Positions 3,340 to 57,524 are shown, counted from the stretch's first letter. The stretch is DNA of 58,371 nt from Clostridia bacterium (GCA_050872805.1 JBNMHN010000001.1:1-58371), one strand, 5' to 3'. The notes: generated from the letters alone by a model not told the origin. Numbers and translations are program-made.

Positions 3340-3706
3340 AAACAACCTTTCCGCTGCCGCATAGAATGCCCACAAGCGCACCGTCCACAAAAATCACTTA
3401 AAGTAGGAACAATACTCACAGCGGCGGGGCTATCCCCGCAAAAGGTACATAACCAATTAACTATGTACCCAAACCTGTTTAATGCCACTCACCAAACCTG
3501 TAGCGGCGGGGCTATCGCACCCGAGAATAAAAGTGCATAGAACGCACAAAAATGCGCCGTCCTCAAAAATCACTTGCATGTAGGGACAGTACCCACAGTG
3601 GCGGGGCTTTCCCTACTCACCAAGCACATAGAATGCATTCAAGTTTGCCGCCCACGCATGTCACTGACACGTAGGGACAGTACCTGTGGCTGCGCGCCAT
3701 CGCGCC
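3340..3706 (+). repeat. intergenic mosaic repeat locus R1 (three tandem L units plus P and C modules)
   Basis: Three copies of CATAGAAnGC...GCnCCGTCCnC...GTAGGnACAnTAC...GC-hairpin, at approx 3351-3439, 3526-3615 and 3620-3706. Palindrome GGTACATAACCAATTAACTATGTACC at approx 3444-3470. CACTCACCAAACCTGTAGC at 3487-3505. Confidence 0.85.
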
Positions 3707-4425
3707 TAGAAGAGGAGAATTGAACTGATAAGACCGCCAATGAAAGTAATGCCAAAACACATATACGCAAAGCAGCCGCACGGATGAGGCGCTTTCTTGC
3801 AGCACGGCTTCATAAACGCACACTTACCCCAGTCAATGCACCCAAAATCAAGCCCGTTACCCGCCTTTAACTCATTGCACGGGTCGCAGCGGTTCGCCTC
3901 CGCCTCCGCCTTTGCTTCCTCCTCAGAGTTCTTTTGTAGTTTGAACTTGAACTTGTTAAGGTACGCCTTTTTCATATCATACTTGCCGCCATTGTCCTGC
4001 GTCTTTGCGTCCTGCGAACTCCCGCTCACCGACCCGCCGTTTGAGGAAACGCCGCTCACACTTCCGCCACTCGCACCACTTGCGCCAGCAGCGCCACCAG
4101 CCGCATTTGCCTTTCCACCAGCAGCACCCTTTGCACCGCCCGTGCGGCTGCGCGATGCATTGTCGCGCTTCATCTTGTTGACTTCAGCCTTACCATTGCC
4201 CTTGCCGCCACCTTTGCCAAGCGACTTGCCCGCCTCAGACTTGCCGCTGCCCTGCGCCGTACCGCGCAAAGCATCGCGCGCACTCGACGCCGCGTTCATA
4301 GCCGAACCCGCCGATTCTTTCATTTGCTCAGCAGCGCCCCCCACGCTTCCAGCGCTAGGAGAATCGTCGTCTTCCGCATCATATCGCAATGTATCAAAAT
4401 TGTTATACTTATAATCCATTTTCAA
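3706..4425 (-). CDS. Gly/Ala/Ser-rich low-complexity protein with a Cys-rich hydrophobic C-terminus
   Basis: 239-aa ORF, 5 nt downstream of the 4431-5267 gene. Long GGxG/SGxS tracts. The last approx 60 aa contain 11 Cys and a TM-like tail. Confidence 0.6.
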   Translation of the reverse strand: MKMDYKYNNFDTLRYDAEDDDSPSAGSVGGAAEQMKESAGSAMNAASSARDALRGTAQGSGKSEAGKSLGKGGGKGNGKAEVNKMKRDNASRSRTGGAKGAAGGKANAAGGAAGASGASGGSVSGVSSNGGSVSGSSQDAKTQDNGGKYDMKKAYLNKFKFKLQKNSEEEAKAEAEANRCDPCNELKAGNGLDFGCIDWGKCAFMKPCCKKAPHPCGCFAYMCFGITFIGGLISSILLF

Positions 4426-4430
4426 TTCTC

Positions 4431-5267
4431 CTAAGCAGTAACGCTAATAGCGTCGTGAGCAAACATTGTCGTAGCACTTGTGGCAGCGTCAAACGCGTTT
4501 GTCAGCGAAATAAAAATTTTCGCAAACTCAGCAGCAGCATCTTGCGCGCTGAACACCTTGTTCAAAAATGTGTTGCACTTAGCGTTGTATGTTTCATTCA
4601 GTTGGTTCACTTGCATTGACGCGCTCGCAATCTTGTATTGCGCCCTCGCGGTTTCCATCGCAGCAGTTACTGAAATTGAATAATCAATCTTCAAAAACAA
4701 ACTGCTTGGCAACGCCGAACCATATGATTTCATCGACTTTTTCATTGTGGCAGTTGATAATTTCATCACAAGTGTGTGCGTTCCGTCCTCATTCACAACA
4801 AGTGAAATGATTTGAAAGTTGTCAAGCGCCGCGTTTTCTTCTTCATTTGAGTGATAGATAGAGGCAAGCAACAACTGCGCAAAATAAGAATATTCCTTGT
4901 CCGTGAACTCAAGTGCAGATGTCACGCGCGCGTTGTCGTCCTTTTCTAGTGCGTCAATATCAAAGTATCCGTTTTCCAAAAACAATGCCGAACCGTCCGC
5001 AAACGTGATTGCGCCACTGAGTTTGTCCTTAACGGACGCCTTGTCAACATCCGCGTACGTATGCTGATAGAAAGTAGTTTCGTCAAACGATTCATTGAGT
5101 TTCGCCGTGAATTCATCATACTCCGCCTGCGACGAAAAGCCGAGTTCCTGCAAAACTGATGTTTTGAACGAATCGCGTATCAAATTGAACCCCGCAATGC
5201 CGCCCACAACGACAACCACAAGAATTAAAATGAGCGAACCCGCGCAAGTCAAAAAACTTTTTTTCAT
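4431..5267 (-). CDS. membrane-anchored hypothetical protein (N-terminal TM)
   Basis: N-terminus MKKSFLTCAGSLILILVVVVVGGIAG. Tightly packed with its neighbours. No family recognised. Confidence 0.65.
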   Translation of the reverse strand: MKKSFLTCAGSLILILVVVVVGGIAGFNLIRDSFKTSVLQELGFSSQAEYDEFTAKLNESFDETTFYQHTYADVDKASVKDKLSGAITFADGSALFLENGYFDIDALEKDDNARVTSALEFTDKEYSYFAQLLLASIYHSNEEENAALDNFQIISLVVNEDGTHTLVMKLSTATMKKSMKSYGSALPSSLFLKIDYSISVTAAMETARAQYKIASASMQVNQLNETYNAKCNTFLNKVFSAQDAAAEFAKIFISLTNAFDAATSATTMFAHDAISVTA

Positions 5268-5270
5268 CCG

Positions 5271-6401: not shown

Positions 6402-7430
6402 TTATTTTATGGCGGCGAGGATGCGGAGTTTCAAATCAAGGAGTTTTGTTTCAAAGGCGGATGTATAAGCGGTTTCGATTGACAGGCAGCGGCTTTCGTA
6501 GTCGTCGATTAATGCGTTTAGCGCGACAACGCCGTTTGCGTCAAATGTCAAGTCCTTTAATATATTGTCGTAGCGGACGTTTGCGAGCGCGACGTATTTT
6601 TCAAGCACGGAGCGCAGTTCGTCCGTTTGTCCGTTGTTGTAGACCAAGAGGTTATATTTGATTGAGCGCAGCAAGTCGAGTACCTTTTCGCAATCCGCCA
6701 AATTTTGGTCACTTTTCAAGTTTAAATCGAGTTCGGCGCGGTAGCCGTTGATTTGCGCGGCAATTGTTTTGCTGAAGTTCATTAGTTCGGCTTCGTCGTA
6801 ATTTGCGTACATTGCAATCAGTTTATCGACGCTTTTGTTTTCGACTTTACCTTTCGCGACGTCGCATTTATTTGCGACGGCTTTGACTAGGTCGTTTTTG
6901 TTTGAAAAACTTGTTGTCAGTTGAAAATCTTTGCCGAGCGTATCTATGACTGACGATTCGTGAATATTTTTTGCTTTGCCGCCGATTTGCGTTGTATCCA
7001 CCATTGATATACAGACGGGGTCGCCTTTAGAAATTAGCCCCAGTGCTTCGGCGTCGCGGACGACTGCTTTAATGGCGGTTGCGACGGAGTCGCCACAATA
7101 GTCGATTCCGAGCAGCAAAACTTGCGCTTCTTTATTGAGTGCGCGCTGCTTGATGACGGTGTCATTTTTTGCGACAAATTCGACTTTGGGGTTCATTTCG
7201 ACAAGCACGTACGCTTCTTGCCCTTTTGGCAGTGCGAACACTATACTTGAGCACACGACTGCAAGCAAGAGGCACGCAAACACGGGCAGCGCAAACATAC
7301 GAAGCGTTTTGCGTGGTTTTGGTTGCTGCGCTGCGGTTTCGATGCCGCATTCTTTACGGATGTTGTTCAAGACAACTTGATTGGGCGCAATGCTGTTGAT
7401 TCCCTTTTTTAGTCTACGCTTAAAGCTCAT
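6402..7430 (-). CDS. putative anti-sigma factor / single-pass membrane protein
   Basis: Overlaps the upstream ECF sigma gene by 11 nt. Short cytoplasmic N-terminus, one TM (FALPVFACLLLAVVCSSIVFAL) and a large extracytoplasmic domain. Confidence 0.6.
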   Translation of the reverse strand: MSFKRRLKKGINSIAPNQVVLNNIRKECGIETAAQQPKPRKTLRMFALPVFACLLLAVVCSSIVFALPKGQEAYVLVEMNPKVEFVAKNDTVIKQRALNKEAQVLLLGIDYCGDSVATAIKAVVRDAEALGLISKGDPVCISMVDTTQIGGKAKNIHESSVIDTLGKDFQLTTSFSNKNDLVKAVANKCDVAKGKVENKSVDKLIAMYANYDEAELMNFSKTIAAQINGYRAELDLNLKSDQNLADCEKVLDLLRSIKYNLLVYNNGQTDELRSVLEKYVALANVRYDNILKDLTFDANGVVALNALIDDYESRCLSIETAYTSAFETKLLDLKLRILAAIK

Positions 7431-7959: not shown

Positions 7960-8035
7960 ATTTCATTGTTTCCAAAGTTTTCCTATATTGTACCACCTTT
8001 TCATTCAATATACAACCCTTTCCCCCTATTTTGTT

Positions 8036-8395
8036 GGTGGCGTACGCCACTGGTGCAGGTTTGGTGAGTGGCACAATACAAACGGGAGTACATAGTCAAC
8101 TAACTATGTACCTTCGTTTAAAGTAAGCCCCGCGGCTGCAAGTACTGTCACTACAAGCAAGTTGCTTTTGTTGACGGCGCATTTTTCTACTTTCTATTCA
8201 GTCTGTCTCTCGGTGCGACGGCGCACGGCTGCAGGTTTGGCGAGAGACACTATACGATGTTTGGGTACATAGTTAATAAACTTGGTGACTTCTTTCGCGG
8301 CGTATCACTGCCGCAGGTTTGGGCGGCATAGGCCGCGACTGCAGGTTTTGTTATGGGCGAAATTGCAATTTGACCGCGCCAGCACAAACAATCAC
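8036..8395 (-). repeat. intergenic mosaic repeat locus R2 (mostly inverted orientation)
   Basis: Hairpins GTGGCGTACGCCAC, GTGCGACGGCGCAC and GCGGCATAGGCCGC, each next to GCAGGTTTGG (the reverse of CCAAACCTGC). Palindrome GTACATAGTCAACTAACTATGTAC. One L unit at approx 8125-8215. TTTGACCGCGCCAGC at approx 8369-8383. Confidence 0.85.
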
Positions 8396-8508: not shown

Positions 8509-9834
<1,326 letters not shown>

Positions 9835-9961
9835 ATCGTCTCCTATCACATATAATGTATCTATTTCATTTTATTACACCCGCCCGCGCTTTGTTACTGT
9901 TCCACCATTTTCCCGTACCTCCCATCATAAACTCAATATTTAGTACCTACACTATAAACCA

Positions 9962-9991: not shown

Positions 9992-10807
9992 TTTTTCATT
10001 TAAGTGGTTTTCGACGGCGACGGAAAGTTTAATATAGTCGTCGACGGACAATTTTTCGCCGCGCACTTGGTTTTTCAGCCCTGCCGCGGCAATGATTTGT
10101 TCCACTTCCGCTTTTTCAAGGTCAAAACCCATTTGCAGGCAGTTGTTTAGCGTTTTTCGGCGCCACATAAAGGCCGCTTTAACAACTTTTGCAAACATTT
10201 CACGATTTGGGATGTCGTATTTATTGAGGTTAATTTTCAAATTGACAACTGCGCTATCGACATTTGGTTGCGGGAAAAACATATTGCGGTTGACAATTCT
10301 TGTGACTGATATGTCGCACAAACTTTGCAGCATAACACTGACTGCACCATATTCTTTACTGCTTTCGCTTGCAGCAAAGCGTTCCGCAACTTCTTTTTGA
10401 ACCATTAATGTCATTGAAGAAATGTTGAATTTTTCTTCAAGCAAACGAAAAATGATTGGCGTAGTTATATAGTATGGCAAATTTGCGACTACTGCAAAAG
10501 TTTTGTCGAAGTGCGACTCAATTTCCGCCCTATCAATGCGCATAAAGTCACCAAAGATAAATTCGACGTTTGGATGATTGGCGCGCACAAGTTCGAGATA
10601 CGGTTTCAAGTCCTTGTCAATTTCTATTGAAACAACCTTTTCGGCTTTCTCCGCCAAAACTTCGGTGAGTGTTCCTGCCCCTGCGCCGATTTCCAAAACC
10701 TGCGTTTGCGCGTCGACGCCTGCGTCGTCCGCGATAGCGTTCAGCAAATTCTTGTCACTGATAAAGTTTTGCCCAAATTTTTTCTTGAAATCAAAATTAG
10801 TAATCAT
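9986..10807 (-). CDS. rsmA: 16S rRNA (adenine1518/1519-N6)-dimethyltransferase
   Basis: FGQNFxxD and EIGxGxGxLT motifs. The ATG at 10807 overlaps the upstream stop (ATGA). Confidence 0.9.
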   Translation of the reverse strand: MITNFDFKKKFGQNFISDKNLLNAIADDAGVDAQTQVLEIGAGAGTLTEVLAEKAEKVVSIEIDKDLKPYLELVRANHPNVEFIFGDFMRIDRAEIESHFDKTFAVVANLPYYITTPIIFRLLEEKFNISSMTLMVQKEVAERFAASESSKEYGAVSVMLQSLCDISVTRIVNRNMFFPQPNVDSAVVNLKINLNKYDIPNREMFAKVVKAAFMWRRKTLNNCLQMGFDLEKAEVEQIIAAAGLKNQVRGEKLSVDDYIKLSVAVENHLNEKD

Positions 10808-11421
10808 AGTTTTCCCTTTTCTTTGACTGCTTTGCAAATGACGTAACCTTTGTGTTTGTCCAAAACTTCGCAATTTCCGTATATGCTAGCAATCTTTTTC
10901 ATATATGTTTCAGCGCCCTGTTTTTTACGCAATACTGCATAAAATGCACCATTATCCCGCAATTTTTGGTAACTTTCCTCAAAAAATTGAAACAATATTG
11001 CGTTGCCGACGCGAATTGGCGGGTTTGTGATGACAAAGTCATAGTCGCATTTTTCAATCGCTTTTGCAACATCTGAAACTACCACATTTGCACTAATCCC
11101 GTTTTGCTCACAATTTTCTTTTGTGAGTGCGACGGCTCTTTCGTTAACGTCGCACGCGGTCATTTGCACGTCGCAATTTTTTGACAAAATGACGGTGATT
11201 GTGCCGTATCCGCAACCGAGGTCGAGCCCTGCGCCTGTGGGGTGTTCCATTTCGATGACTGTTTTCAGCAAAAACAAAGTTCCGTCGTCAAGTTTGCTTT
11301 TGGAAAACACGCCGTCTTGAGACTTAAATTTGTAAGTTTGTCCAAAAAAATCTTCCGTTATCAAATGCTCTTTATGTTCGCGATTATCATTTGTGAAATA
11401 GTGATTGAATTGTTTTTCCAT
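10804..11421 (-). CDS. class I SAM-dependent methyltransferase, RsmC/YbxB-like (MTS small domain)
   Basis: DLGCGYGxI and the NPP(I/F) motif (ITNPPIRVG). Translationally coupled on both sides. Confidence 0.8.
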   Translation of the reverse strand: MEKQFNHYFTNDNREHKEHLITEDFFGQTYKFKSQDGVFSKSKLDDGTLFLLKTVIEMEHPTGAGLDLGCGYGTITVILSKNCDVQMTACDVNERAVALTKENCEQNGISANVVVSDVAKAIEKCDYDFVITNPPIRVGNAILFQFFEESYQKLRDNGAFYAVLRKKQGAETYMKKIASIYGNCEVLDKHKGYVICKAVKEKGKL

Positions 11422-12104
11422 TATTTGTCCTTTATATTCTCTATTTGCCAGTCAATTGGCGCTTTGCCGAGTTGTTTCAAGATTTCGTTTGTTTTTGAAA
11501 AGTGTTTGCATCCAAAAAATCCGCTGCTTGCTGAAAGTGGGCTTGGGTGCGCGGCGGTCAAAACAAAGTGTTTTGATGTGTCGATGTTTTTCGCAAGCGC
11601 TTTTGCGTTGTTGCCCCACAAAAGGAATATGACGGGGTCGTCGCGCTGGTTTAATAATTCCAAAACCTTGCCAACGATATTTTCCCACCCCATTCCTTGG
11701 TGAGAGTTCGCTTGCCCTTGGCGGACGGTCAACACGCTGTTTAGCAGCAGCACGCCTTGCTTTGCCCACTTTGTTAAGTCGCCGTTGTCGGGTATATAGC
11801 ACCCGCAATCGTCGCGCAACTCTTTGTATATGTTTTGCAGACTTCGCGGAATTTCCACATCGGGCTGAACCGAAAAGCAAAGCCCGTTTGCTTGATTTGG
11901 CTGGTGGTAAGGGTCTTGCCCGATTATGACAACTTTGACGTCGTTATATGGCACACAATTTAGCGCGTTGAACACGTTTTCGGGCTTTGGGTAAATGATG
12001 TGGCTTTGGTACTCCATTGTCAAGAAGCGCGTCAATTTTTTGTAGTAATCTTTGTTAAACTCGTCTTTTAAAAGTTCAAACCACGATTGTCTTATTGGAA
12101 ACAT
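11421..12104 (-). CDS. ung: uracil-DNA glycosylase
   Basis: GQDPYH and HPSPLSA motifs. ATG at 12104 preceded by GGAG. The longer ORF-track start is unsupported. Confidence 0.9.
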   Translation of the reverse strand: MFPIRQSWFELLKDEFNKDYYKKLTRFLTMEYQSHIIYPKPENVFNALNCVPYNDVKVVIIGQDPYHQPNQANGLCFSVQPDVEIPRSLQNIYKELRDDCGCYIPDNGDLTKWAKQGVLLLNSVLTVRQGQANSHQGMGWENIVGKVLELLNQRDDPVIFLLWGNNAKALAKNIDTSKHFVLTAAHPSPLSASSGFFGCKHFSKTNEILKQLGKAPIDWQIENIKDK

Positions 12105-12126
12105 TCTTTCTCCTTTGTAATAATTT

Positions 12127-14412
12127 TTAAGTGCCTTGCGGGTCGGCGGCAACGATTGTCAAAGTGCCGCTAACACACGTAATATCATAATTGGCGCTAT
12201 TTTTTGTGATTGTAATTGTTATTTTGTGCGTGCCGACTGAAGTTTCGCTGCAAGCAAGTTTAAACTGAATATCGTCATTCAAAATACTGTCGCCTGAAAT
12301 TTCATATTTAAAATCTGGCGTTTTCCCCTCAACAATTTCAAGGTCTGTTGCCGTAATTGTAAGCACGCGTTTTGTGATTACAAGCGTTCCTTTTGAAAAC
12401 TCAATTTCGTAGTTTGGGACTTCGGCTTTCAATGCTGCGGTTATGTTGTATTCGCCTACGTCGTTTTCCCACGGTATGTTGAATGTAACATTGCTCAAAA
12501 TGTCGATATTTTCAATGTTCGGGTCGCTTTTTTTCTCGTTCAAAACACACGATATGCTTGACGTGTCGGGACTTTGGTAATATATCATAGATAATGAACC
12601 TATATCATAGTATAAATACCTTTTTCTAATTGTCAAAACGCCTGTTTCGGTCGAAATAGTGTAGTTTTTGTCCTCGGTGGTGACTTCAAGCGAAACCGTG
12701 TAATTGCCAACATCGGTACCCTCAGGGCGTGTGAAATTGAACTTTAATTTGTGGTCGTCCTTTAATCCATCGCCCGCGGAATCAATAGTATAAGTATAAT
12801 TTGGCTCAGGGTCTGCATACGGAATTGTCACATCATCTACTTTGAGCGTAACAAGCGCGGGAGTAATTTTAAATTCCGCATTTTCTGTTTTTACATTGTA
12901 GTTGTTTTTTTCTTGAGAAAAGTGAGGAGTAATTGCATATATCCCAACATCCTCGCCCTCTCCACGTGTAAGTGTTACCTGTATTTCGCTTGTGAAAGGA
13001 ACGTCATAGTATTCCAAATCAAATAAGTACGTAAATTCTGGGTCTGCTTGTCCATAGCGCTTTGCTGCATTCTCCGCAAGCAAACAAATGTCACGTTGTT
13101 TAATTGTGAGAGTCCCTTTGACAACATTCAAGCGGTAATTCTTGAGGTCGACATCACACACCGCATTGATTGCGTACTTGCCCGCGTCCTCGCCCTCCTC
13201 GCGAACTAGATTAATCCCAATCGTGTCGTCGTAAAACAATTTAGTGTGGTCAGCAGTGTTTTGCGAATTGTACAATGAGTATGAATACTCAGGTTCGTCA
13301 TACTTATACTTCTTTTCAGCATTTGCGACAGTAACTGTTAGCGTTGCTTGCCAAACATTAACTCTTGCGTTGTTGTATGTCAGTTCATAATCATTAGTTG
13401 TTGCGGTGCAATCCAAGTTGTATAGCCCCGCATCGTGCATATCCTCAGGATATGTAATGCTAATACCCAAATCTTCCATAGTATCGTCGTTTTTCAGCCC
13501 GACAACACTATAACTAATTGCGCTCGGCGTGCATCCATAATAGAATGACGAAACACTAACATTGACTTGCACGCTTGCTTTGCGAATATAAAAGTTACCC
13601 TCAATAAACTTTACATCATAATTTGTGGCATTTTCGCCACTTGCGACAAACTTTTGAGATTCGATTATTTTATAATTGCCCGCGCTTTCGCCAACCTCGC
13701 GCGCAAGGTCGCCCGTGATTACGACGCCTTCGTCATAGATTTGCCCTTCAATTCGCTTTGTGAGTGCGACATCACTTGCGCCGTAAATTTTTTCTTTGTT
13801 ATCCGCTTTGACTTCAATCGTTTGTGGTTGGACGACAAGCGTAACTATACTTTCGCCGACATAATTTGCCGTGTTCACGGACGCTTTGACCGTATAAGTG
13901 CCAGCGTCAGTTGGCGGCGTGGTTGTTGCGACGCTTTCGCCTTGTTTTAGATACTCATAGACGACATTATCGTAGTCGTTTGTGACCTCGACCGCTTGCG
14001 GCGCGGCGTTGTATGTGCGCGTTATGACACCATTGATTGCTTCGCCAAAGCGCAGGTTGAGTGACCCCGTTGTGATTTCAAATGTCACGGACTTTGTTAT
14101 GTTGCCGTCAAGTGCACGCGCAAAAATTGTTATGCGCCCAGCGCCTAACGTTTCGACAGAAATAAGCGTATCACTGATTTCCTCGATTTTTATTAAGTCG
14201 TTTCGCGGCGTCCACCACTCGACGCGCTTGTCGGAAGCCGTTTCAGGCTTGAAAATAACCTGCAATTCAAACGTTTCGCCAACAACGACCGTTTGCGACG
14301 GCAGTCCCTCAATTTCAATGTCGTCGAGCGAAACTTCGTTGCAACCGACAAACATCAAACTTGCAAAGAATACTGCTAGACTCAATCCAAAGTATTTAAC
14401 AAAATTTTTCAT
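12127..14412 (-). CDS. surface lipoprotein with a Big_2-like domain and multiple MBG (YDG/YGX-type) repeats
   Basis: Lipobox LMFVGC. Repeated KxYGxxDP...LxRxxGExxGxYxI units. Confidence 0.75.
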   Translation of the reverse strand: MKNFVKYFGLSLAVFFASLMFVGCNEVSLDDIEIEGLPSQTVVVGETFELQVIFKPETASDKRVEWWTPRNDLIKIEEISDTLISVETLGAGRITIFARALDGNITKSVTFEITTGSLNLRFGEAINGVITRTYNAAPQAVEVTNDYDNVVYEYLKQGESVATTTPPTDAGTYTVKASVNTANYVGESIVTLVVQPQTIEVKADNKEKIYGASDVALTKRIEGQIYDEGVVITGDLAREVGESAGNYKIIESQKFVASGENATNYDVKFIEGNFYIRKASVQVNVSVSSFYYGCTPSAISYSVVGLKNDDTMEDLGISITYPEDMHDAGLYNLDCTATTNDYELTYNNARVNVWQATLTVTVANAEKKYKYDEPEYSYSLYNSQNTADHTKLFYDDTIGINLVREEGEDAGKYAINAVCDVDLKNYRLNVVKGTLTIKQRDICLLAENAAKRYGQADPEFTYLFDLEYYDVPFTSEIQVTLTRGEGEDVGIYAITPHFSQEKNNYNVKTENAEFKITPALVTLKVDDVTIPYADPEPNYTYTIDSAGDGLKDDHKLKFNFTRPEGTDVGNYTVSLEVTTEDKNYTISTETGVLTIRKRYLYYDIGSLSMIYYQSPDTSSISCVLNEKKSDPNIENIDILSNVTFNIPWENDVGEYNITAALKAEVPNYEIEFSKGTLVITKRVLTITATDLEIVEGKTPDFKYEISGDSILNDDIQFKLACSETSVGTHKITITITKNSANYDITCVSGTLTIVAADPQGT

Positions 14413-14647
14413 TTGCGTCCACCCAAAATTTATTTACTTTAGTATACCACAAAAATGACTTTATTTGCAAACATTTTGTATGTTTTTACCTCTATATTCA
14501 TTTGACATTTTTTTGTTAAAATGATAAAATTTACAATTAAAATCACCCAGCAATTTACAATTTTTTTTACTTTTCTTTGACAAGTTAAAAACTTAGTGAT
14601 TTTAATACTATTATTCATTTTGCAAATAATATCACAAAGGAGAAATT

Positions 14648-16720
14648 ATGAGAATAAGAAACATTGCTCTGTTAATTGCTAGTTGCTTTGCAATTGCGCT
14701 GTTTTGCGTGGGCGGACAAACTTTGAACTTTAGCGTGTCGGCCGACGATCAGCCAACTTACACAAAAGTTGCAACTCTTGACGAACTCAACACCTCTATC
14801 ACAAATGGTCAATACAACATTGAAATTACAAATACAATAACGGTAAATGCAAACTTAAATCTCTCAAATATAAATTTTTATCTTAATCCTGACAACACAA
14901 AAACGTGTTTTACACTTGATAATTCGACTCTCAATCTTGAAAACTGCACTATCAAAGCAAATTTGACGCCAGAGTTTACCTACGACGATAGAGAGCGTCC
15001 AACAGCGGTTGATACGACAAGTGTCAAGTACTCATTTGTCAACGGCAAAGGCAACTTGACAACAACTAATTGCGAATTTAGCAACATTATCTTCAATAGT
15101 TCGTCGCAATTGATTAATATTTCAGGCACAACTGATGCGCCATATGAAATCAATTTCTTGAACACGCGCTTTGCAAACCTTTCTAGCAACGGCAACTTGA
15201 TTCGCGCGGTTTACACGGCTGTCAACTTTGGCACAAGTGAAAAGACTCAAAAATGCACTGTTGAAAACATCTTTTGCCAAGGCAATGGCGCATTTGTTCT
15301 TGAACAAAACAGCAACATCAACCTTTATGCGATTGACGTGCTGAATTGCAAGTTTAGAGGAAACGGTTTTTTCTCAGTAAACTACAAAGGAATTATCAAC
15401 TTTTATAGCGGTCTTATGCAAAACAACACTGGCTACCCACGAAGTGGCGGCTCGTGGGGTACACTCATTCACCTTTATGACGGAACAAAGTTCAATATGT
15501 ACAATGGCGAAATCTCCAGCAATGTCGGCTACTGGGCAATCATCGGCACGGGCCGCACGGGACTTGACATTCGTATTGTCGCTGGAAGAATTGCAGACAA
15601 CACGGGGCTTGACGGCACATTTGAAACGGTCGAAGGCACTTTGGAAATTGAAAAGGATGCCACAATCATCGGTGATGTTTACAACTCAGGCAGTTCGATG
15701 AAAAATTCGGGAACAATCAAAGGAAACATCACAATTGAGGACGGCTCAGATACAAGCCCAACTATTGTTGAAAACGATGGTAACATTGAAGGTAACGTCA
15801 CAATCAAAAATGGTACTTTCAACAACAAAGGTACAATGAAAGGAAAAATTGACTTTGAAATTTCTACTAACAGTAAAGATGAACCTATTGAAACAAATGG
15901 TTCACTCACAAACAGTGGCACAATGGATGCTGAAATCAATATGAAGCACGGCACAATCGTCAATGACGGGGAATTGCGCGGCAATGTCACTGTTGATAAT
16001 GGCAACATCACAAACAACAAAGACTTTTATGCTGACACAACATTAAATGACGGCACAATGACAAACGACGGCACGGCTTACGGCAAAACAACTGTAAACG
16101 GCGGCGAAGTTGTCAACAACAATAACTATAAAGGCGACATTACTGTTAGTGGGGGCACATTCACAAACAATGAAGAATGCAACTCAAATGTGACGGTTGA
16201 TAGCGGCACATTTAACAACAACAAAAACGTCACAGGCGAAGTTACAAGCAATGGTGGAACTTTCTCAAATGGTAAAGACGCGACTATCACGGGCAAAGTC
16301 ACGCTTGATGGCGGAAATATTACTAACAACGGCAAGGTTGACGGCGACATTGACGCAAAGAATGGCTTGTTTGACAACATCAACCAAATTTTTGGTAAAA
16401 TCACCGCGTCGGGCGGAACATTCATTAACGGCGGAAAAATTGCAGGCGATGTCACCTCCAAAGGCGGTGCAGCAGTTACAAACAACGGCACTATCAATGG
16501 TAAGATTTCGGGCAAAATCACAAACAATGGAACGGTCAATGAACCGACTGATTTCACGTGGGTGTATTTTGCTGGTAGCGCGATACTAATTTTGATTATC
16601 GCAATTATTGTAGCAATGGTAGTTGTATCAAATAGAAAGCACAAAAAGCCTGCGTCTATTCAAATAGACAAGTCAGTTTTAGAAAAGACTTTGCGCGACA
16701 AGCAAAAAAATGACGACTAA
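14648..16720 (+). CDS. surface protein with beta-helix-like N-terminal region, Gly/Asn/Thr-rich short repeats and a C-terminal TM anchor
   Basis: Signal peptide. Many NGGTFxNxGxxxGxV-type repeats. C-terminal hydrophobic segment followed by RKHKK. RBS AGGAG. Confidence 0.75.
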   Translation: MRIRNIALLIASCFAIALFCVGGQTLNFSVSADDQPTYTKVATLDELNTSITNGQYNIEITNTITVNANLNLSNINFYLNPDNTKTCFTLDNSTLNLENCTIKANLTPEFTYDDRERPTAVDTTSVKYSFVNGKGNLTTTNCEFSNIIFNSSSQLINISGTTDAPYEINFLNTRFANLSSNGNLIRAVYTAVNFGTSEKTQKCTVENIFCQGNGAFVLEQNSNINLYAIDVLNCKFRGNGFFSVNYKGIINFYSGLMQNNTGYPRSGGSWGTLIHLYDGTKFNMYNGEISSNVGYWAIIGTGRTGLDIRIVAGRIADNTGLDGTFETVEGTLEIEKDATIIGDVYNSGSSMKNSGTIKGNITIEDGSDTSPTIVENDGNIEGNVTIKNGTFNNKGTMKGKIDFEISTNSKDEPIETNGSLTNSGTMDAEINMKHGTIVNDGELRGNVTVDNGNITNNKDFYADTTLNDGTMTNDGTAYGKTTVNGGEVVNNNNYKGDITVSGGTFTNNEECNSNVTVDSGTFNNNKNVTGEVTSNGGTFSNGKDATITGKVTLDGGNITNNGKVDGDIDAKNGLFDNINQIFGKITASGGTFINGGKIAGDVTSKGGAAVTNNGTINGKISGKITNNGTVNEPTDFTWVYFAGSAILILIIAIIVAMVVVSNRKHKKPASIQIDKSVLEKTLRDKQKNDD

Positions 16721-16807
16721 AGTCGAATTAGGTTTATAATTTGTAAATTTAAATTAATAAATTTTACTCAATAAACATAATTTCAATGAAAATAATCTAT
16801 TGATAAT

Positions 16808-16855
16808 AAAAACAGTTATCCACAAAAGTTTAGTTTTTGTGGATAACTGTTTTTT
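16808..16855. terminator. bidirectional terminator whose arms are perfect DnaA boxes
   Basis: AAAAACAGTTATCCACAAAAG / TTTTTGTGGATAACTGTTTTT. TTATCCACA at 16816-16824 and TGTGGATAA at 16838-16846. Lies between convergent genes. Confidence 0.7.
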
Positions 16856-17597: not shown

Positions 17598-17606
17598 TCA
17601 TTCTCC

Positions 17607-17760
17607 CTGCGGGGATAGCCCCGCGGCTGGTGCGATAGCGCACGGCTGTGATTGCTGTCTGTACGCGTCATCTACTTTCGTGGACGGCGTACTTTCCCTT
17701 TTTTTATATACTTTAATCCTCGGTGCGAAAGCGCACTGCTGTGGTTACTATCATTACGCT
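17607..17760 (-). repeat. intergenic mosaic repeat locus R3
   Basis: GCGGGGATAGCCCCGC, then GTGCGATAGCGCAC, then a degenerate L unit (GGACGGCG...), then GTGCGAAAGCGCAC. The first hairpin abuts the SD of the SDR gene. Confidence 0.8.
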
Positions 17761-17864
17761 TGATTAAATTATTCTTTTAATTAAAGGCAAATACCTTGCA
17801 ATTTTATAATGTCGTCTTATAAATAACGCTTTTGCAGAAATGCAAAAGCGTTGTGAATGGTACA

Positions 17865-18419: not shown

Positions 18420-18499
18420 TTGTTATCATTCTCCTAAAATTTATATTCTATTTTACCCGAAAATGCCCTCATTTGTCAAGAGTTTCGCTCAAAAAAGCG

Positions 18500-19489: not shown

Positions 19490-19580
19490 AATTAATTCTC
19501 CCTTTATGTAATTAGATATAAAAAAATAGAGCCGTTGTAATAATATATCACAATGCCCCCATTCCTATCGTAACAATGGT

Positions 19581-19609
19581 ATTATACCACTTGTATCAAA
19601 TTAAGTCAA
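19581..19609 (-). promoter_or_regulatory. consensus sigma-A promoter TTGACT-17-TATAAT for pnuC
   Basis: Minus strand: TTGACT (19609-19604), 17-nt spacer, TATAAT (19586-19581). It leaves an approx 85-90-nt structured leader. Confidence 0.6.
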
Positions 19610-19794
19610 CCGCCAATTTATTTATTAATTTTAAATGCAAATTATATGATAAATTTAATGATTAGTTTGCTTTAAGGAAAAACATCCCCCGCTATTTAAT
19701 GCACATTTTTTGTAAATGACAAAAAGTTATTTACTTATTTTAAAAAATATGGTATCATTATTTATAGATTTTCAAAAAACAACTTTGTTGTCAC

Positions 19795-19822: not shown

Positions 19823-19849
19823 CAGTGCAACAATTCTTAAGAGGTAAAT

Positions 19850-21100: not shown

Positions 21101-21102
21101 CA

Positions 21103-21282
21103 TATATGTACCTAATTTAATATAGTGTCACTCACTAAACCCACAGCAGTGGGGCTATCCCTAACGAAAATTGGAGCAAGTAGAAAGTACATAGGTACGC
21201 CGTCCACAATCGCTACTTGAGCGTAGGAACAGTACCTGCACCAGTGGCGTTTGCCACCAGCAGCGGGGCTATACCCGCCCAC
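21103..21282 (+). repeat. intergenic mosaic repeat locus R4
   Basis: CACTCACTAAACCCACAGC + GTGGGGCTATCCC. One L unit with GTAGGAACAGTACCTGCACC. Hairpins GTGGCGTTTGCCAC and GCGGGGCTATACCCGC, ending 9 nt before the SD of the next gene. Confidence 0.85.
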
Positions 21283-36469: not shown

Positions 36470-36985
36470 GCCCCATTTTTACAAAATATTTTTGCGGCGG
36501 GGATAGCCCCGCGGCTGCAGATACTGGCGGGGATAGCCCCGCTGCTGCAGGTACTGTCCCTACGCGCCATTTGCTTTCGTGGACGGCATAGTGCATTCCA
36601 TTCTTTTCACTTTTTGTTCTCGTGTGGGAATATCCCCGCCGCTGGTGCGATAGCGCACTGCTACTGGTACTGTCCCTACACACCAGCCACTTTCATAGAC
36701 GGCGAACGCGACTGCTTTCTATGCCGTACAGTTCTCGAGTGGGGATAGCCCCGCGGCTGCAAATACTGTCCCTACTCTCAACCGACTTTCGCGGACGGCA
36801 AACGCAACTGCTTTCTATGCCGTACAGTTCTCGGGTGGGGATAGCCCCGCCGCTGGTGCGATAGCGCACTGCTACAGATGCTTTCCCTACGCGTCATTTG
36901 CTTTCGTGGACGGCGTAGCACATTTCATCCTATCCGCTTCAGTTCTCGGGTGCTTTCGCACCCGCGCCAGCAATCAAGCAAAAAA
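36470..36985 (-). repeat. intergenic mosaic repeat locus R5: tandem array of L units (alternating approx 96 and approx 114 bp)
   Basis: GGGGATAGCCCCGC-type hairpins start at approx 36497, 36527, 36624, 36739, 36835 and 36948. Each full unit carries GTACTGTCCCTAC, GGACGGC and GCTTTCTATG. Every second unit has an extra GTGCGATAGCGCAC. Confidence 0.9.
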
Positions 36986-45282: not shown

Positions 45283-45377
45283 AAAAAACTCTTTGATTAT
45301 CAAAAAAACTCTTTGATTATCAAAAAAACTCTTTGAGTGAAGAATAAATAAATTCTCCATTCTAAAGAGTTTTTTTA
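45283..45377 (+). repeat. 2.7 copies of a 20-bp direct repeat (CAAAAAAACTCTTTGATTAT). The last copy forms the 5' arm of a terminator hairpin.
   Basis: Copies at approx 45283-45300, 45301-45320 and 45321-45336. The 3' arm TCTAAAGAGTTTTTTT is at 45361-45376. Confidence 0.7.
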
Positions 45378-45485: not shown

Positions 45486-45698
45486 ACAACGCACATAGTC
45501 AATTGACTATGTACCAACAACATACAGCGTCACTCACCAAACCTGCAGCAGCGGGGCTTTCCCCGCCCAAACCTGCACAAGTGGCGTTTGCCACTATCCC
45601 CACCGAGAACACGTGCTTATAGAAAGCACATAAGTGCGCCGCTCACTGACGCAACTTGCTTGTAGGGACAGTACCTGCAGCAGCGAGGCTACGCCCGC
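45486..45698 (+). repeat. intergenic mosaic repeat locus R6
   Basis: Palindrome CACATAGTCAATTGACTATGTAC. CACTCACCAAACCTGCAGC-GCGGGGCTTTCCCCGC-CCAAACCTGCAC-GTGGCGTTTGCCAC. One L unit ends in GCGAGGCTACGCCCGC, which contains the stop of the next gene. Confidence 0.85.
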
Positions 45699-46234
45699 TC
45701 GTCGTCATCGTCGTCAAAATCGTCGTCCTCGTCGTCTTCTTCATCTTCATCGTCGTCATCAAAATCGTCGTCAAAGTCCTCGTCCGTCATATCTTGCGCA
45801 AACTCGTCCTTTGCAAGTTCGTCAATTTCCGCAAAGTTCAAATCTGAATCAAGTGCAATGTCGTCAAGGTCAGTCGATATGCCTGCGTCGTACCCGTCGT
45901 CAATGCTGCCGATTGACGCCATTGGCCCCAAGTTTTCCTCTTCCTCGTTGTCGTCCTCAATGCCGTCATCATTGATATAATCGTGCCATTCAGTGAGGTC
46001 GATGTCGTCCACATCTGCGCCCTCCGCTTCTTTCTCGGCAGCACAACTAGCGCACATAATTTCGTCCTCAGTAATATAGTTCGTCTTGCAAATAGGGCAC
46101 AATTCAAGGTCAATGTCACACGCAAGGTCGTCGTGCCTTGCGTTCATTTCGTTGATGCAAACACTACAATAGTCCTCCCCTTTCTTTATGTAGTTGAGTT
46201 CACATCTTGGGCATCTTTTATATATTGTTTTCAT
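45689..46234 (-). CDS. double zinc-ribbon protein with hyper-acidic Asp/Glu C-terminal half
   Basis: CPRC...CSVC and CPIC...CASC pairs, then approx 110 aa dominated by D/E. ATG at 46234 preceded by AGGAG. Confidence 0.7.
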   Translation of the reverse strand: MKTIYKRCPRCELNYIKKGEDYCSVCINEMNARHDDLACDIDLELCPICKTNYITEDEIMCASCAAEKEAEGADVDDIDLTEWHDYINDDGIEDDNEEEENLGPMASIGSIDDGYDAGISTDLDDIALDSDLNFAEIDELAKDEFAQDMTDEDFDDDFDDDDEDEEDDEDDDFDDDDDERA

Positions 46235-46351
46235 AATTATTTTTTCTCCTAACATTTTTTTAAAATGGTTTAGTATATTTTAATGATTTTTAATACAAAA
46301 GTCTACTATTTTTGCAATGTTTTTAACAAAAAATCACGAATTTGGTAAAAA

Positions 46352-52245: not shown

Positions 52246-52352
52246 TTTTTCTTTTATTATTATATCAATTCTCCTCCCTCTTTGTCAATTAGTTACTTTC
52301 TATTTTTTCTCATTGTCGGTGCGATATAATAAATTGTCCTTTTTATCATTGT

Positions 52353-52651
52353 AAGCCACTCACCCTCTTGTCTTTTTGACCAAAGGCGGAGACGTCTGCC
52401 CTCGCCGCCGCGGAGAGTGCCAGACGGCACAGGTGTGGTTGTTGGTTGGTGCGTATACGTTGTTGTGTGGCGGCAACCAAACCTGCAGTCAAGGCGAGCC
52501 TTGCCGAAAGGGTAACCCGATACATTATGGGTTACATAACCGCCTTGACCGCGCTAGCATATAACTATCATACAAAAAGAACGGCAGTGCGCCGTCCTCA
52601 AAAGTAAATTAAACGTACAAACAGTACTCACAGTCGCGGGGCTTTCCCCGC
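52353..52651 (+). repeat. intergenic mosaic repeat locus R7
   Basis: GCCACTCACCC. CCAAACCTGCAGT + CAAGGCGAGCCTTG. GGTAACCCGATACATTATGGGTTAC...TTGACCGCGCTAGC. One L unit ends in GCGGGGCTTTCCCCGC, 20 nt from the next stop codon. Confidence 0.8.
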
Positions 52652-52671
52652 AAATTGTCATATTGTTAATT

Positions 52672-54003: not shown

Positions 54004-54162
54004 TTGCCCATCAACCTTTTCACTTAGTACTAGTATAATAGCAAAAAAACATTTTTTTGTCAACATAAACTCAAGGTAAACGCCATTTTTGTTGTGGTTT
54101 AGAACGCTTAATATTGACAATACGTCCTATCTAGTAATTAATTTTAACATTTAATAAGACAA

Positions 54163-54570
54163 ACCTTGCGAGAGCGGCAACCTGTTACATTATGGGTTAC
54201 CCCAAAAATTTGACCGCGCCAGCCTACAAATAAAGAAAACTATTGTAAAAGTGGTAAGTCACCCACCCCCATCGTCATTGCGAGGCAGTCAATGGAATAT
54301 TGTGCCACTACTTGCGCTTATCGCTCCAACTGACACATTAGGTACGTCTGCCTATGCGAACCCGCCCATCCCTTGACAACGTGGCAATCTCCCGGAAGGG
54401 CAACCCGATACATTATGAGCGAGTTTACACATTGACCGCGCTAGCAAACATAAAAGGTACATAGCAAATTAACTATGTACCTACTTTCATATAAAGTCAC
54501 TCACCAAACCTGCAGCAGCGGCCTATGCCGCCCAAACCTGCAGCCGTGCGCTTTCGCACCACATCGTCCA
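54163..54570 (+). repeat. intergenic mosaic repeat locus R8
   Basis: Two T modules (GCAACCTGTTACATTATGGGTTAC..TTTGACCGCGCCAGC and GCAACCCGATACATTATGAG..ATTGACCGCGCTAGC). Palindrome GGTACATAGCAAATTAACTATGTACC. CACTCACCAAACCTGCAGC-GCGGCCTATGCCGC-CCAAACCTGCAGC-GTGCGCTTTCGCAC. Confidence 0.85.
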
Positions 54571-55264: not shown

Positions 55265-55293
55265 ATTATATACCACGACACAAAATTTGTCAA
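55265..55293 (-). promoter_or_regulatory. consensus sigma-A promoter TTGACA-17-TATAAT
   Basis: Minus strand: TTGACA (55293-55288), 17-nt spacer, TATAAT (55270-55265). Confidence 0.6.
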
Positions 55294-55330
55294 ACATTTT
55301 TATAGCCAACTAAAAATAATTTATTCAATT

Positions 55331-57388
55331 TCAGCCTTTAAGCGCAATTTTGTATGCGGCGGTGATTTTTTCAAACCATTGTCTTTCAATGGCTTCGACT
55401 TCTTCACTTGTCAATGTTTCGTCAAAACTATTGTAAGTTATTTGTATGAGTTGTGAGGTTGTGCCCTCTTTGACGCCTTTGCCTTTGTAGAGGTCTTTGG
55501 CTTCGATATTGATAATTTTATTAGACGTTTTCTCAATTTCCGTTTTATAGTCCGCAAACTTCACGTCAGTTGGAACAAGCAAATTGTACTCTCTTGTGAT
55601 GCTTGGGAATTTGCTTTGCTCCTCAAGCGCGGTCGTTCCCATAGAAAGCATATCAATGTTGATTTCAAGATAGTATACCTTTTCGCGGACAAGTTTACCA
55701 TTCTCAAAGTTCTTGACCGCGCCGTCATCCAAAATACCGATGATACCAAACTTTTTGCCGCCAACCAAAATATCCGCGCAAAGTTCAAAGGTTGGCTCTT
55801 GCTTTTCGACAAGTTCAAACGGCATACTGTATTGCGCCATAATGAGTTCTAACACTTGCTTGATATCGTAGAAATCATACGGAACATTTTTATCAATGCC
55901 AAAGCCCTTTTCAATTTTGTTCCCACACAAAACGACTGCCAAGTGCGAATTTTGCCCGTAGCCCGTGTCCGCGCTCGCGTCGCGCTTGAACACTGTGCCG
56001 ATTTCAAAAATCGGCTCGCACACGCCGTCTTTTGCGACGTTGTACACAAGCGTGTTCACCATACTATAAATGAGGTTGGGACGCATCAGTGCAAACTTGT
56101 TTGAAAGCGGATTAATCAACTTAATGTCGCCATAAAGTTCGCTTTTTTCGTCGATTTTGAGCATTTTCATTGCGTTTTCGTGGATAAACGAATACGAAAT
56201 GCACTCATTCGCCCCAACGCCGTACAACAAATTGCGCAAAATGTCGGAATTAATGATATAGTCGTTTGGCTCGTATTCGACGCTCAAATTCGGCATTGTC
56301 GGCTCAATGTTGTGGTAGCCGAAAATTTGCGCGACGTCGCCCACAACGTCAATTTTATCTTCAAAGTCAAGCCTATAATTTGGCGCGATGACCTCAATGT
56401 TTTGGTCGTCCAAAACGCTTACAGTATAGTAATAACTTTCAAGCAACTTTTTTATGTCCTGCGCTGAAAATTTTGTTCCCAAAATTTTATTGATGTACGA
56501 CACTTCAAGTTGTTTTTTGTTTTCCTTAGAATTTTCAAACTTAACAAACGCTGAATCTAATTGCCCACCGCAGTTTTCCAAAATGTACTCAGCGCACAAG
56601 CACGCGCCAAGTTTTGTGATATTCGCGTCCACGCCGCGCTCGTATCTATACGACGCAAGCGTGCTGATGTGCGTGTTTTGGCTTACAACGCGCAATTTGA
56701 TTGGATTAAAGTTTGCCGACTCAATGACGATGTTTTTCGTATTTTCGTCCACTTCAACTTTTTGCGTGCCAATAATGCCCGCAAGGCACACGGCGCCGCT
56801 GCTGTCCTTTATAATAATGCTGCCCTTTGGCGCAGTGATTTCGCTGCCGTTGATTGTCGTCAACTTTGTGTCACTTGCTAGGTTGTCAAACTCAAGTTTT
56901 GCATTGAGTTTATCTAGGTCGTACACGTGAATCGGCTGCCCAAGTTCTAGCATAACAAAGTTTGAGAAATCAACAATCGGGTTGACGCTTGCAACGCCCA
57001 AATTGTGCAACAATTTAACAATCTTTTCAGGCGTCTTTTTGGTGTTGTCAATGTTTTTGATGCAAACAAGCACCAAATTGCCGACGTCGTCGGTTTTGAT
57101 TTCCACATCAATCGGCAAATTCTTTAGCCCCGACAAATCAACTTTGCTTTCAATCTTTGGCTCCTTGTTATATTTTTTATAAACATAATATTCGCGCAAA
57201 ACGCCCAAATGCGAAAGCATATCGGGGCGGTTTGCCTTGACCTCAAGTTCGACAATGGCGTCGTCGTCCATTTCTTCTTCGCACGCGACTTCAAAGCCCT
57301 GTAGGTCTAACCAATTACGGTCGAAATCCTTATAATCAATGGATTCGCCCGCCAACTTTTCTAAAAATCTATGTGAATATTTGAACAT
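55331..57388 (-). CDS. pheT: phenylalanine--tRNA ligase beta subunit, short form lacking the N-terminal OB-fold tRNA-binding domain
   Basis: B3/4, B5 and FDX-ACB-type regions are recognisable. At 685 aa it is shorter than the approx 800 aa typical of bacteria. The sequence passes from LQGFEVA directly to IVELEVKANRPDMLSHLGVLRE. Confidence 0.88.
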   Translation of the reverse strand: MFKYSHRFLEKLAGESIDYKDFDRNWLDLQGFEVACEEEMDDDAIVELEVKANRPDMLSHLGVLREYYVYKKYNKEPKIESKVDLSGLKNLPIDVEIKTDDVGNLVLVCIKNIDNTKKTPEKIVKLLHNLGVASVNPIVDFSNFVMLELGQPIHVYDLDKLNAKLEFDNLASDTKLTTINGSEITAPKGSIIIKDSSGAVCLAGIIGTQKVEVDENTKNIVIESANFNPIKLRVVSQNTHISTLASYRYERGVDANITKLGACLCAEYILENCGGQLDSAFVKFENSKENKKQLEVSYINKILGTKFSAQDIKKLLESYYYTVSVLDDQNIEVIAPNYRLDFEDKIDVVGDVAQIFGYHNIEPTMPNLSVEYEPNDYIINSDILRNLLYGVGANECISYSFIHENAMKMLKIDEKSELYGDIKLINPLSNKFALMRPNLIYSMVNTLVYNVAKDGVCEPIFEIGTVFKRDASADTGYGQNSHLAVVLCGNKIEKGFGIDKNVPYDFYDIKQVLELIMAQYSMPFELVEKQEPTFELCADILVGGKKFGIIGILDDGAVKNFENGKLVREKVYYLEINIDMLSMGTTALEEQSKFPSITREYNLLVPTDVKFADYKTEIEKTSNKIINIEAKDLYKGKGVKEGTTSQLIQITYNSFDETLTSEEVEAIERQWFEKITAAYKIALKG

Positions 57389-57443
57389 TTTTCCTCTTCC
57401 TTATATTATTTTTCTTTTTACCGCATTAAATCGCGAACTAGCC

Positions 57444-57524
57444 TGCATAAGCAGTACAACTGCACGCCGCCCACGATAGTTTGTTGCTTGTAGGGAAAGT
57501 ACCTGCACCTGTGGCGTCTACCAC
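57444..57524 (+). repeat. intergenic mosaic repeat locus R9 (single L unit between pheS and pheT)
   Basis: GCATAAGCAG...CGCCGCCCACGATAG...GTAGGGAAAGTACCTGCACC-GTGGCGTCTACCAC. The hairpin abuts the pheS stop codon. Confidence 0.8.

Follow-up and report, generated by a model that had tools for sequence, protein, structure and literature searches.

A dispersed family of extragenic mosaic repeats sharing a tag-plus-hairpin module in uncultured Clostridia

Whether repeated modules lying between bacterial genes form a true repeat family, and if so of what kind, is the question raised by a 58,371-nt stretch of DNA from a Clostridia bacterium (GCA_050872805.1 JBNMHN010000001.1:1-58371; referred to here as the window, whose positions serve as coordinates). 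An initial annotation had described nine intergenic regions of this stretch as assembled from four modules (L, C, P and T) and had likened them to the REP/BIME elements of proteobacteria. The repeats are a genuine family, dispersed, extragenic and mosaic. A repeat search recovered interlocking repeat families at exactly the nine loci (numbered 1 to 9: 3340-3706, 8036-8395, 17607-17760, 21103-21282, 36470-36985, 45486-45698, 52353-52651, 54163-54570 and 57444-57524), and the proposed motifs, searched as regular expressions, occurred there alone apart from short chance matches. Profile searches (nhmmer) of the window yielded 13 full-length and 3-4 partial L units (E 1e-14 to 1e-22), in keeping with the approximately 14 counted by eye, together with 6 PC units and 4 copies or fragments of T units; the L profile gave 16-17 matches in the window and 44 in the stretches L001-L014. 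A repeat library compared with the window by BLAST marked 2,630 bp (4.5%), somewhat less than the roughly 3 kb first estimated, all of it inside the nine loci and none elsewhere. The G+C content of the repeats was 52%, against 43% for the window.

All unit types share a core of ~25 nt consisting of the tag ACCTGCAGC, one nucleotide and a G+C-rich hairpin of 5-6 bp with a 4-nt loop (mostly CTAT, CTTT or GTTT). Both the L unit (~95 nt) and the PC unit (~84 nt) end 3' in this core, which is also present as an inverted pair inside the T unit (150-235 nt) and repeated alone in "tails" of 25-30 nt. The L unit has the pattern CGAGAAC..ATAGAAAG..CGCCGTCCAC..ACTT..CGTAGGGACAGTACCTGCAGC-N-hairpin, and 41 full-length copies aligned from the window and two metagenome-assembled genomes (MAGs; CALDMJ01 and CAKVOD01) gave the consensus (N2-4)CGAGAAC-N-AAAG...ATAGAAAG-N10-CGCCGTCCAC-N14-CGTAGGGACAGTACCTGCAGC-N-hairpin; the 5' motif CGAGAAC also belongs to the L unit. 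The modules P and C, at first listed separately, are parts of one PC unit, in which a 9-bp palindrome (AAAAGGTACATAG-N8-CTATGTACC) is followed by CACTCACCAAACCTGCAGC-N-hairpin, or in detail by 16 nt and (G)TCACTCACCAAACCTGCAGC-N-hairpin. The T module likewise turned out to be part of a larger unit with a short (~150 nt) and a long (~235 nt) form, its conserved 5' module being AAAGTGGTAAGCCACTCACC..TTGTCATTTCGACC and its conserved 3' module CCGGAAGGG.AACCCG.TACATTATGGGTTAC..CATTGACCGCGCYAGC. The sequence GTAG occurs in L units only, where it begins 20 nt before the hairpin and lies 17 nt upstream of it, and is absent from PC, tail and T units. No coding capacity was found in the units, and a small open reading frame (ORF) in the T unit was discarded because the reading frames differ between copies.

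Both the pairing of the terminal hairpin and the conserved blocks are maintained. The 41-copy L alignment is almost gapless (6 gap characters in 4,018 cells) at a mean pairwise identity of 60%, within and between genomes alike, and the frequency of the top base is 0.82-0.88 in block columns and 0.56-0.63 in the variable stretches. In 38 of the 41 copies a single nucleotide separates CTGCAGC from the start of the L hairpin, and the stem is perfect in 31, compared with 0.8 of 41 for shuffled tails. At least six distinct complementary stems are represented (GCGGGG/CCCCGC, GCGGG/CCCGC, GTGCG/CGCAC, GTGGC/GCCAC, GCGGC/GCCGC, GCGCG/CGCGC, ACGGGG/CCCCGT); these stem figures come from a custom count, as a MAFFT alignment of the tails puts 5-bp and 6-bp stems in different registers. 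All strong mutual-information pairs fell inside the terminal hairpin, no other helix in L was found by RNAalifold, a diagonal scan or mutual information, and single-sequence folds were inconsistent. In a comparison of RNA and DNA folding, stem mismatches by strand numbered 7 C·A vs 2 G·T, a small sample.

The family is apparently undescribed. The Rfam search proposed at the outset gave no match anywhere in the window at the gathering score and chance-level matches only in E-value mode for loci 5, 7 and 8, the core sequences had no match in the literature searched, and plasmid and phage sequences held no match to the repeats, all of which bears out the earlier impression of a sequence outside any described family. 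Neither is it a local duplication, because other genomes carry its modules on many contigs. In a search of 185,579 species-representative genomes, a 20-mer of the L core required to match exactly, a probe that would miss diverged versions in other lineages, was found in only two, the uncultured Clostridia MAGs CALDMJ01 and CAKVOD01, on 13 contigs; every module type is common to the window and these MAGs, at 70-90% identity and on at least 13 contigs. A further stretch of 15.5 kb (ERZ808299 NODE_2550, designated L029), which is syntenic with window positions 10731-24854 at 86-90% nucleotide identity, carries repeats at two intergenic sites that also bear them in the window, and none elsewhere in its length, and the family is thus found in three other uncultured Clostridia MAGs. 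A metagenome scan with the L core returned one short contig only.

Close relatives provided a sharp contrast. In thirteen pheS-anchored loci from relatives (197 kb in total, PheS identity 72-96%), neither nhmmer nor BLAST nor a scan for strict tag-plus-hairpin units detected any module; such strict units numbered 43 in 168 kb of repeat-bearing DNA vs 0 in the 197 kb of these thirteen, and none of the thirteen had a comparable repeat family of its own. Relatives free of the repeats include GCA_964489405.1, GCA_944332315.1, GCA_050178795.1 and GCA_964531865.1. In one repeat-free relative (L017), an A+T-rich motif, TTGTATCAATAGTGATAT..., fills the 279-nt pheS-pheT spacer (10982-11260) and recurs 3.7 kb away, at 7324-7379.

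The units and fragments of the window are distributed over the nine loci as follows (E values from nhmmer).

3358..3445, plus strand: L unit of locus 1 (E 9e-15), with the perfect hairpin GCGGGG-CTAT-CCCCGC
3441..3524, plus strand: PC unit (E 5e-22) with P palindrome at 3444-3469 (by regular expression), C head, tag and hairpin
3531..3614, plus strand: L unit (E 9e-21)
3623..3712, plus strand: L unit with hairpin GCGCG-CCAT-CGCGC at 3692-3705; C3706 + TA gives the TAG stop of the minus-strand gene 3706-4425
8032..8115, minus strand: PC unit (E 5e-23), P at 8087-8112
8122..8202, minus strand: L unit (E 2e-20), hairpin decayed
8208..8291, minus strand: PC unit (E 3e-18), half of P left
8296..8351, minus strand: two tail units (tag plus hairpin)
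8345..8387, plus strand: fragment of the T 3' module, TTGACCGCGCCAGC at 8370-8383, oriented opposite to the rest of the locus
17607..17628, minus strand: extra tail hairpin GCGGGGCTATCCCCGC, lying immediately 5' of the ribosome-binding site of gene 16854-17597
17629..17713, minus strand: L unit (E 7e-14), with an orthologous copy in L029
17718..17770, minus strand: partial L (3' half), absent from L029
21105..21161, plus strand: PC unit, 5'-truncated, adjoining the stop codon of gene 19850-21100; L029 has a full PC plus a T unit
21176..21264, plus strand: L unit (E 8e-22), orthologous to L029:11755-11841
21254..21281, plus strand: extra tail unit that makes a 25-26 nt indel against L029 and closely precedes the ribosome-binding site of gene 21286-21768
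36489..36526, minus strand: tail unit
36527..36612, minus strand: L unit of the four-unit array of locus 5 (E 2e-21)
36639..36725, minus strand: L unit of locus 5 (E 4e-19)
36735..36821, minus strand: L unit of locus 5 (E 1e-20)
36850..36938, minus strand: L unit of locus 5 (E 3e-18)
36948..36985, plus strand: hairpin GGTGCTTTCGCACC, then a CGCGCCAGC fragment resembling the T 3' end; bounds the locus 5 array
45489..45566, plus strand: PC unit (E 7e-20)
45567..45595, plus strand: tail unit, AAACCTGCACA + GTGGCGTTTGCCAC
45615..45702, plus strand: L unit whose hairpin (45682-45697) holds the stop codon (45689-45691) of the minus-strand gene 45689-46255
52329..52563, plus strand: T unit, long form, with an inverted pair of tail units (E 5e-67; alignment)
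52569..52656, plus strand: L unit (E 3e-17)
54156..54223, plus strand: T 3' module alone (E 4e-9)
54230..54448, plus strand: T unit variant with a different middle segment (E 3e-40), 84% identical to L013:4849-5003
54453..54533, plus strand: PC unit (E 3e-22), P at 54456-54481
54536..54563, plus strand: tail unit
57430..57525, plus strand: single L unit in the pheS-pheT spacer; site empty in relatives

Within a locus the units abut in one shared orientation, mostly head-to-tail, as they also do in the MAG loci; arrays read L-PC-L-L at locus 1, PC-L-PC at locus 2, four L at locus 5 and T-PC-tail at locus 8, and the array-internal junction is a conserved join of hairpin and CGAGAAC. Inverted pairs were found inside long T units and once in L003, and nowhere else. 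No strand bias was visible among the full L units of the window (7 plus, 6 minus), and the loci fall between tandem, convergent or divergent genes with the units on either strand relative to transcription, so that the occurrence of both orientations relative to flanking genes, noted at the outset, holds; the array of locus 5 sits exactly between two divergent promoter-like sites. All 43 strict copies lie in intergenic DNA or at gene ends. The stop codon that had been spotted inside a terminal hairpin is indeed carried in the hairpin loop of an L unit (45682-45697, minus-strand gene 45689-46255), and two further stops touch elements: the TAG codons of pheS (57525-57527) and of the gene at 3706-4425 are each made up of the final C of an L unit and an adjoining TA; in L005 and L008 a gene also ends inside an L unit. 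Hairpins directly precede ribosome-binding sites at loci 3 and 4, and at loci 1, 6 and 9 they fall at stop codons. No recurrent protein family neighbours the repeats, and no sigma-70 promoter-like or intrinsic-terminator-like site occurs at a conserved position of the unit. A terminator scan gave nothing at locus 5 and one hit at locus 1, at the 5' end of an L unit and at the level of shuffled sequence, and the unit hairpins are followed by no T-run on either strand, as an intrinsic terminator would require. In the MAGs the flanking genes are ordinary housekeeping ones, namely dnaN, class I and threonyl-type class II aminoacyl-tRNA synthetases, a thioredoxin-reductase-like gene, an HtrA-like gene and gerAC.

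The comparison of orthologous intergenic regions that had been suggested produced one clean empty/filled pair, in the pheS-pheT spacer. This spacer measures 136 nt in the window, with one L unit, against 10-32 nt in seven relatives; it is 32 nt in L015, 13 in L019, 15 in L020, 10 in L021, 20 in L023/L024 and 18 in L025/L026, while L016, L017, L018, L027 and L028 have A+T-rich spacers of 66-303 nt with no module. The empty site (L015, reverse complement) reads ACACGCAATTAGTGCAATTTTTTG and the filled site of the window reads ACCGCATTA[AATCGCGAACT...GTGGCGTCTACCACC]TAGTGTAGTTTTTTG. The insert of ~95 nt is one L unit, from AATCGCGAACT at the CGAGAAC end to the hairpin, and falls within the stop codon of pheS, where TA may have been duplicated. 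As judged from the aligned sites, the pair shows that one unit was inserted at the end of a gene. At a second junction (L011 empty, L022 filled) the boundary is again at the hairpin end, ambiguous by 3 nt.

Arrays also differ between species: whole units are gained or lost and hairpins are replaced. One orthologous site has 1 L unit in L005 vs 5 in L008, and the hairpins of the orthologous unit are different yet equally perfect (GTGCG... vs GCGGG...), which means that the module was replaced and not altered by point mutation. Locus 4 is 185 nt in the window (5'-truncated PC, L, tail) vs 597 nt in L029 (T, PC, tail, L(a), L(b), L(a')), where units a and a' are nearly identical and so represent a local duplication; the same locus shows the clean 25-26 nt indel of a tail unit before the ribosome-binding site, and locus 3 of the window has an extra partial L relative to L029.

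No transposase or recombinase was found in the window, in agreement with the earlier statement that it holds no RAYT gene, and a six-frame profile search of the 168 kb of repeat-bearing DNA for a Y1 transposase of the IS200/IS605 or RAYT type gave nothing below E = 1 (profile derived from IS608 and ISDra2 together with two TnpA sequences of archaea). Two other candidates were rejected. A supposed composite transposon bounded by inverted T units (L013 or L014) encloses ORFs without a Pfam match or encoding GIY-YIG and RecX proteins, and no transposase. A 935-aa ORF at L015:17171-19978 (GCA_964489405.1, CAZAYL010000010.1), with Exo_endo_phos + RVT_N, RVT_1, GIIM and DUF7662 domains, joins an AP-endonuclease-like domain to a group-II-intron-like reverse transcriptase in a LINE-like architecture, and was rejected as mobiliser because its stretch carries no repeats. 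As a separate observation, three T units of mixed orientation in L014 (2266-2728 and 2738-3052) lie directly upstream of a gene for a stand-alone GIY-YIG nuclease of 104 aa, which is followed by recX. An origin of the repeats in a tRNA or tmRNA was also considered and set aside, as the window contains no tRNA or tmRNA gene.

Among known systems, the feature that defines REP elements is a GT[AG]G at the foot of their hairpin (PMC6006769, PMC3733652), and their stem sub-families are kept by compensatory changes (PMC3733652); in REP families inverted pairs (BIME/REPIN) are typical and head-to-tail dimers rare, and what has been learnt of REP-like tagged hairpins and the enzymes that act on them comes almost entirely from Proteobacteria, the surveys consulted listing no Firmicutes. 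A RAYT-associated family would in addition have a tnpA_REP gene in its genome with copies of the repeat on its flanks (a REPtron). The present family resembles REP/BIME/REPIN in forming abundant extragenic mosaic clusters, in its short G+C-rich hairpin with a conserved unpaired 5' tag (a multicopy module of ~25 nt, within the 21-65 nt of the short imperfect REP palindromes), in its compensatory stem sub-families, in that most copies have no linked transposase and in the persistence of positions across species. It differs in that the tag is (A)CCTGCAGC + 1 nt, so that the tetranucleotide at the hairpin foot is AGC+N and not GT[AG]G; the module is embedded in units of 84-235 nt with further conserved blocks; units are co-oriented and mostly head-to-tail, inverted pairs not predominating; the host is a Clostridia lineage; and no RAYT was seen in 168 kb. 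The equation of a GTAG-initiated palindrome with REP, on which the initial annotation had relied, therefore fails, because GTAG lies 17 nt off the hairpin and is found in L alone. What survives of the proposed REP/BIME architecture is the extragenic mosaic with its tagged G+C-rich hairpin; the GT[AG]G foot and the habit of inverted pairing do not.

The Streptococcus BOX elements (boxA-boxB(n)-boxC; PMC3049150) are likewise modular composites with an internal module reiterated in tandem, an array length that varies between strains or species, a Firmicutes host and a tendency of different repeat types to cluster side by side. Unlike BOX, the present elements share no sequence similarity with it, have no terminal inverted repeats, are G+C-rich relative to their genome (52% vs 43%) and share a 3' tag plus hairpin instead of the A and C ends. 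The DDE-type miniature inverted-repeat transposable elements (including BOX and RUP) carry terminal inverted repeats and target-site duplications, a combination not seen here, and the ends of the singleton L unit (AATCGCGAACT... and ...GTGGCGTCTACCACC) are not inverted repeats. With the ends of IS200/IS605 elements, which transpose as single strands by "peel and paste", and of their gene-less derivatives (PMC6006769, PMC5027513) the family has in common a hairpin at the end, the lack of terminal inverted repeats and the lack of a clear long target duplication, and orientation-specific abutting insertion of the IS200/IS605 kind would explain the head-to-tail arrays; unlike them, neither TnpA nor TnpB was found. 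Non-autonomous derivatives of this group have subterminal hairpins at the two ends and insert 3' of a fixed tetra- or pentanucleotide, leaving the target unduplicated. A 5' hairpin around ATAGAA was seen in some copies only, weak and with no covariation signal, whereas the 3' hairpin is strong, and the 3' flanks of ~25 array ends read C|TAG in 7 and C|AAA in at least 9. The family is thus of the small-interspersed-mosaic-repeat kind (REP/BIME/BOX-like) and stands outside any named family, and there is no evidence of a departure from the general biology of REP-like repeats.

The reading with the best support is that the repeats are a lineage-restricted family of non-autonomous mosaic elements, with the 3' tag plus hairpin as functional module. 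We regard as about evenly balanced the fuller proposal, in which the elements are non-coding and their tag and hairpin are recognised in trans by an enzyme. Such an enzyme, encoded elsewhere and acting on folded single strands, could be HUH/Y1-like, as for REP and IS200/IS605 ends, or of a different type; it would place new units beside existing ones in a fixed orientation, and if the folded tag and hairpin were recognised in trans, this would account for units that insert side by side in one orientation yet lack terminal inverted repeats. Modules may then be shuffled by recombination at the conserved blocks, giving the mosaicism, and hairpins that land in transcripts at gene ends or before ribosome-binding sites may secondarily affect the mRNA. 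Several observations weigh against this proposal. The window and ~110 kb of other repeat-bearing loci yielded no transposase or recombinase; among 57 copies those at different loci reach 80% identity at best, so that there is no sign of recent transposition or of a burst, and adjacent units of the same array alone reach 90%; one clean insertion event was observed, with an ambiguous TA target duplication; and repeat positions are conserved between the window and L029 over 15 kb. In three orthologous pairs from different species, block columns are 83% identical vs 63% for variable columns (Fisher p = 0.003) and hairpin columns 84%. This block conservation and the scarcity of indels (6 gaps across the 4,018 cells of the alignment) agree with a host-maintained function no less well than with selfish mobility, and they point to constraint on many copies after insertion, which could stem from selection or from conversion between copies. 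At locus 3 the core of the orthologous copy has decayed in both species.

The main rival, which does not exclude mobility, is that the units are host-maintained cis-acting modules, each copy being useful whatever its origin, either as protein-binding sites or as mRNA hairpins (3'-end stabilisers, processing sites, intercistronic punctuation). Besides the conserved blocks, gapless spacing at 60% mean identity and positions shared with L029, the perfect hairpins of 31 of 41 copies and their placement right before ribosome-binding sites or at stops speak for it; but the units face either way relative to transcription and also lie between divergent promoters (locus 5), some orthologous copies have a decayed core (locus 3), close relatives lack the elements wholly, array size varies freely between species and no T-run follows the hairpins, and we consider it unlikely. 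A canonical REP/BIME system whose mobiliser is a RAYT (TnpA_REP) present in single copy elsewhere in the genome would account for the extragenic, abundant, mosaic elements, for a short G+C-rich hairpin beside a conserved non-pairing tag, for compensatory stem sub-families like those of REP families (PMC3733652) and for the REPIN-like inverted pair of tag-plus-hairpin modules in the T unit. It is nevertheless improbable given a hairpin foot of AGC+N instead of GT[AG]G, a GTAG 17 nt upstream and in L only, a predominance of the head-to-tail order that is rare in REP families, surveys that report no REPs in Firmicutes and the lack of a Y1 transposase in 168 kb. Fixed unit length, conserved blocks and a terminal hairpin would also be expected of independent small-RNA genes in tandem arrays, each transcribed alone; yet the units contain no sigma-70-like promoters and no T-run after the hairpin, no covarying helix beyond the terminal one, no consistent fold among copies and no Rfam match, which makes this explanation very improbable indeed. 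More speculatively, and in our view rather doubtful, the repeats could represent a third superfamily of "tagged palindromes", with a CTGCAGC tag (not GTAG or CGTC) and ~90-nt units of fixed geometry, written head-to-tail by a dedicated hairpin-recognising enzyme unrelated to RAYT, the copies then being selected by the host, for example for protein binding or mRNA punctuation.

The repeats form a family with clear limits in an uncultured lineage of gut Clostridia; its tag is a different one and its grammar is head-to-tail, while the REP-like repeats characterised otherwise are almost all proteobacterial. Bearer and non-bearer genomes stand at close phylogenetic distance and therefore provide a clean comparative handle for finding the putative enzyme through co-occurring genes, and the same contrast allows selfish DNA to be tested against host-useful persistence. 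The repeats also fragment MAG assemblies, several repeat-bearing contigs ending inside arrays.

The window itself is chromosomal Firmicutes/Clostridia-type DNA (42.6% G+C) of an uncultured gut lineage; the nearest public proteins to its own come from gut MAGs, and those further off carry the labels Clostridiales or Christensenellales. Among the genes of the window are efp, pheS-pheT and tilS; others encode methyltransferases, ksgA-type and otherwise, an ECF sigma factor accompanied by an RsgI-like anti-sigma factor, MBG-domain proteins, a collagen-like protein, a Fic protein, an AbiEii toxin and a protein of 4,851 aa. At locus 6, the 188-aa ORF 45689-46255 (minus strand), whose final codons and stop are supplied by the L element, has a C-terminal region that is rich in Asp/Glu and extremely acidic (GAC/GAT/GAA repeats at 45690-45796). 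Just upstream of this locus, in an A+T-rich spacer (45283-45336), lies a perfect 20-nt tandem repeat of 2.7 copies, AAAAAACTCTTTGATTATCA, which is unrelated to the mosaic family. The largest repeat array directly adjoins an AbiEii pair (37018-38515), in which the toxin gene (37649-38515) is preceded by a 209-aa ORF without a Pfam match, a likely antitoxin. The 4,851-aa protein is encoded by a single ORF at 22015-36570 (minus strand) with many diverged internal repeats (D6, D9, D12, D13, D18, D19), and the MBG-domain proteins are encoded near it, at 12127-14412. The collagen triple-helix repeat protein (8509-9849, minus strand) contains 9-nt periodic DNA repeats at 9024-9723 and has a homologue in L007. 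Throughout the clade PheT measures 684-687 aa (window 55331-57388, L015-L028) and comprises the B3_4, B5, core and FDX-ACB domains of Pfam, the N-terminal tRNA-binding domain being absent. Immediately downstream of pheT in L019 (10664-18152) is a type II-A CRISPR-Cas9 system (cas9, cas1, cas2, csn2) with ~20 repeats of 36 nt at a period of 66 nt.

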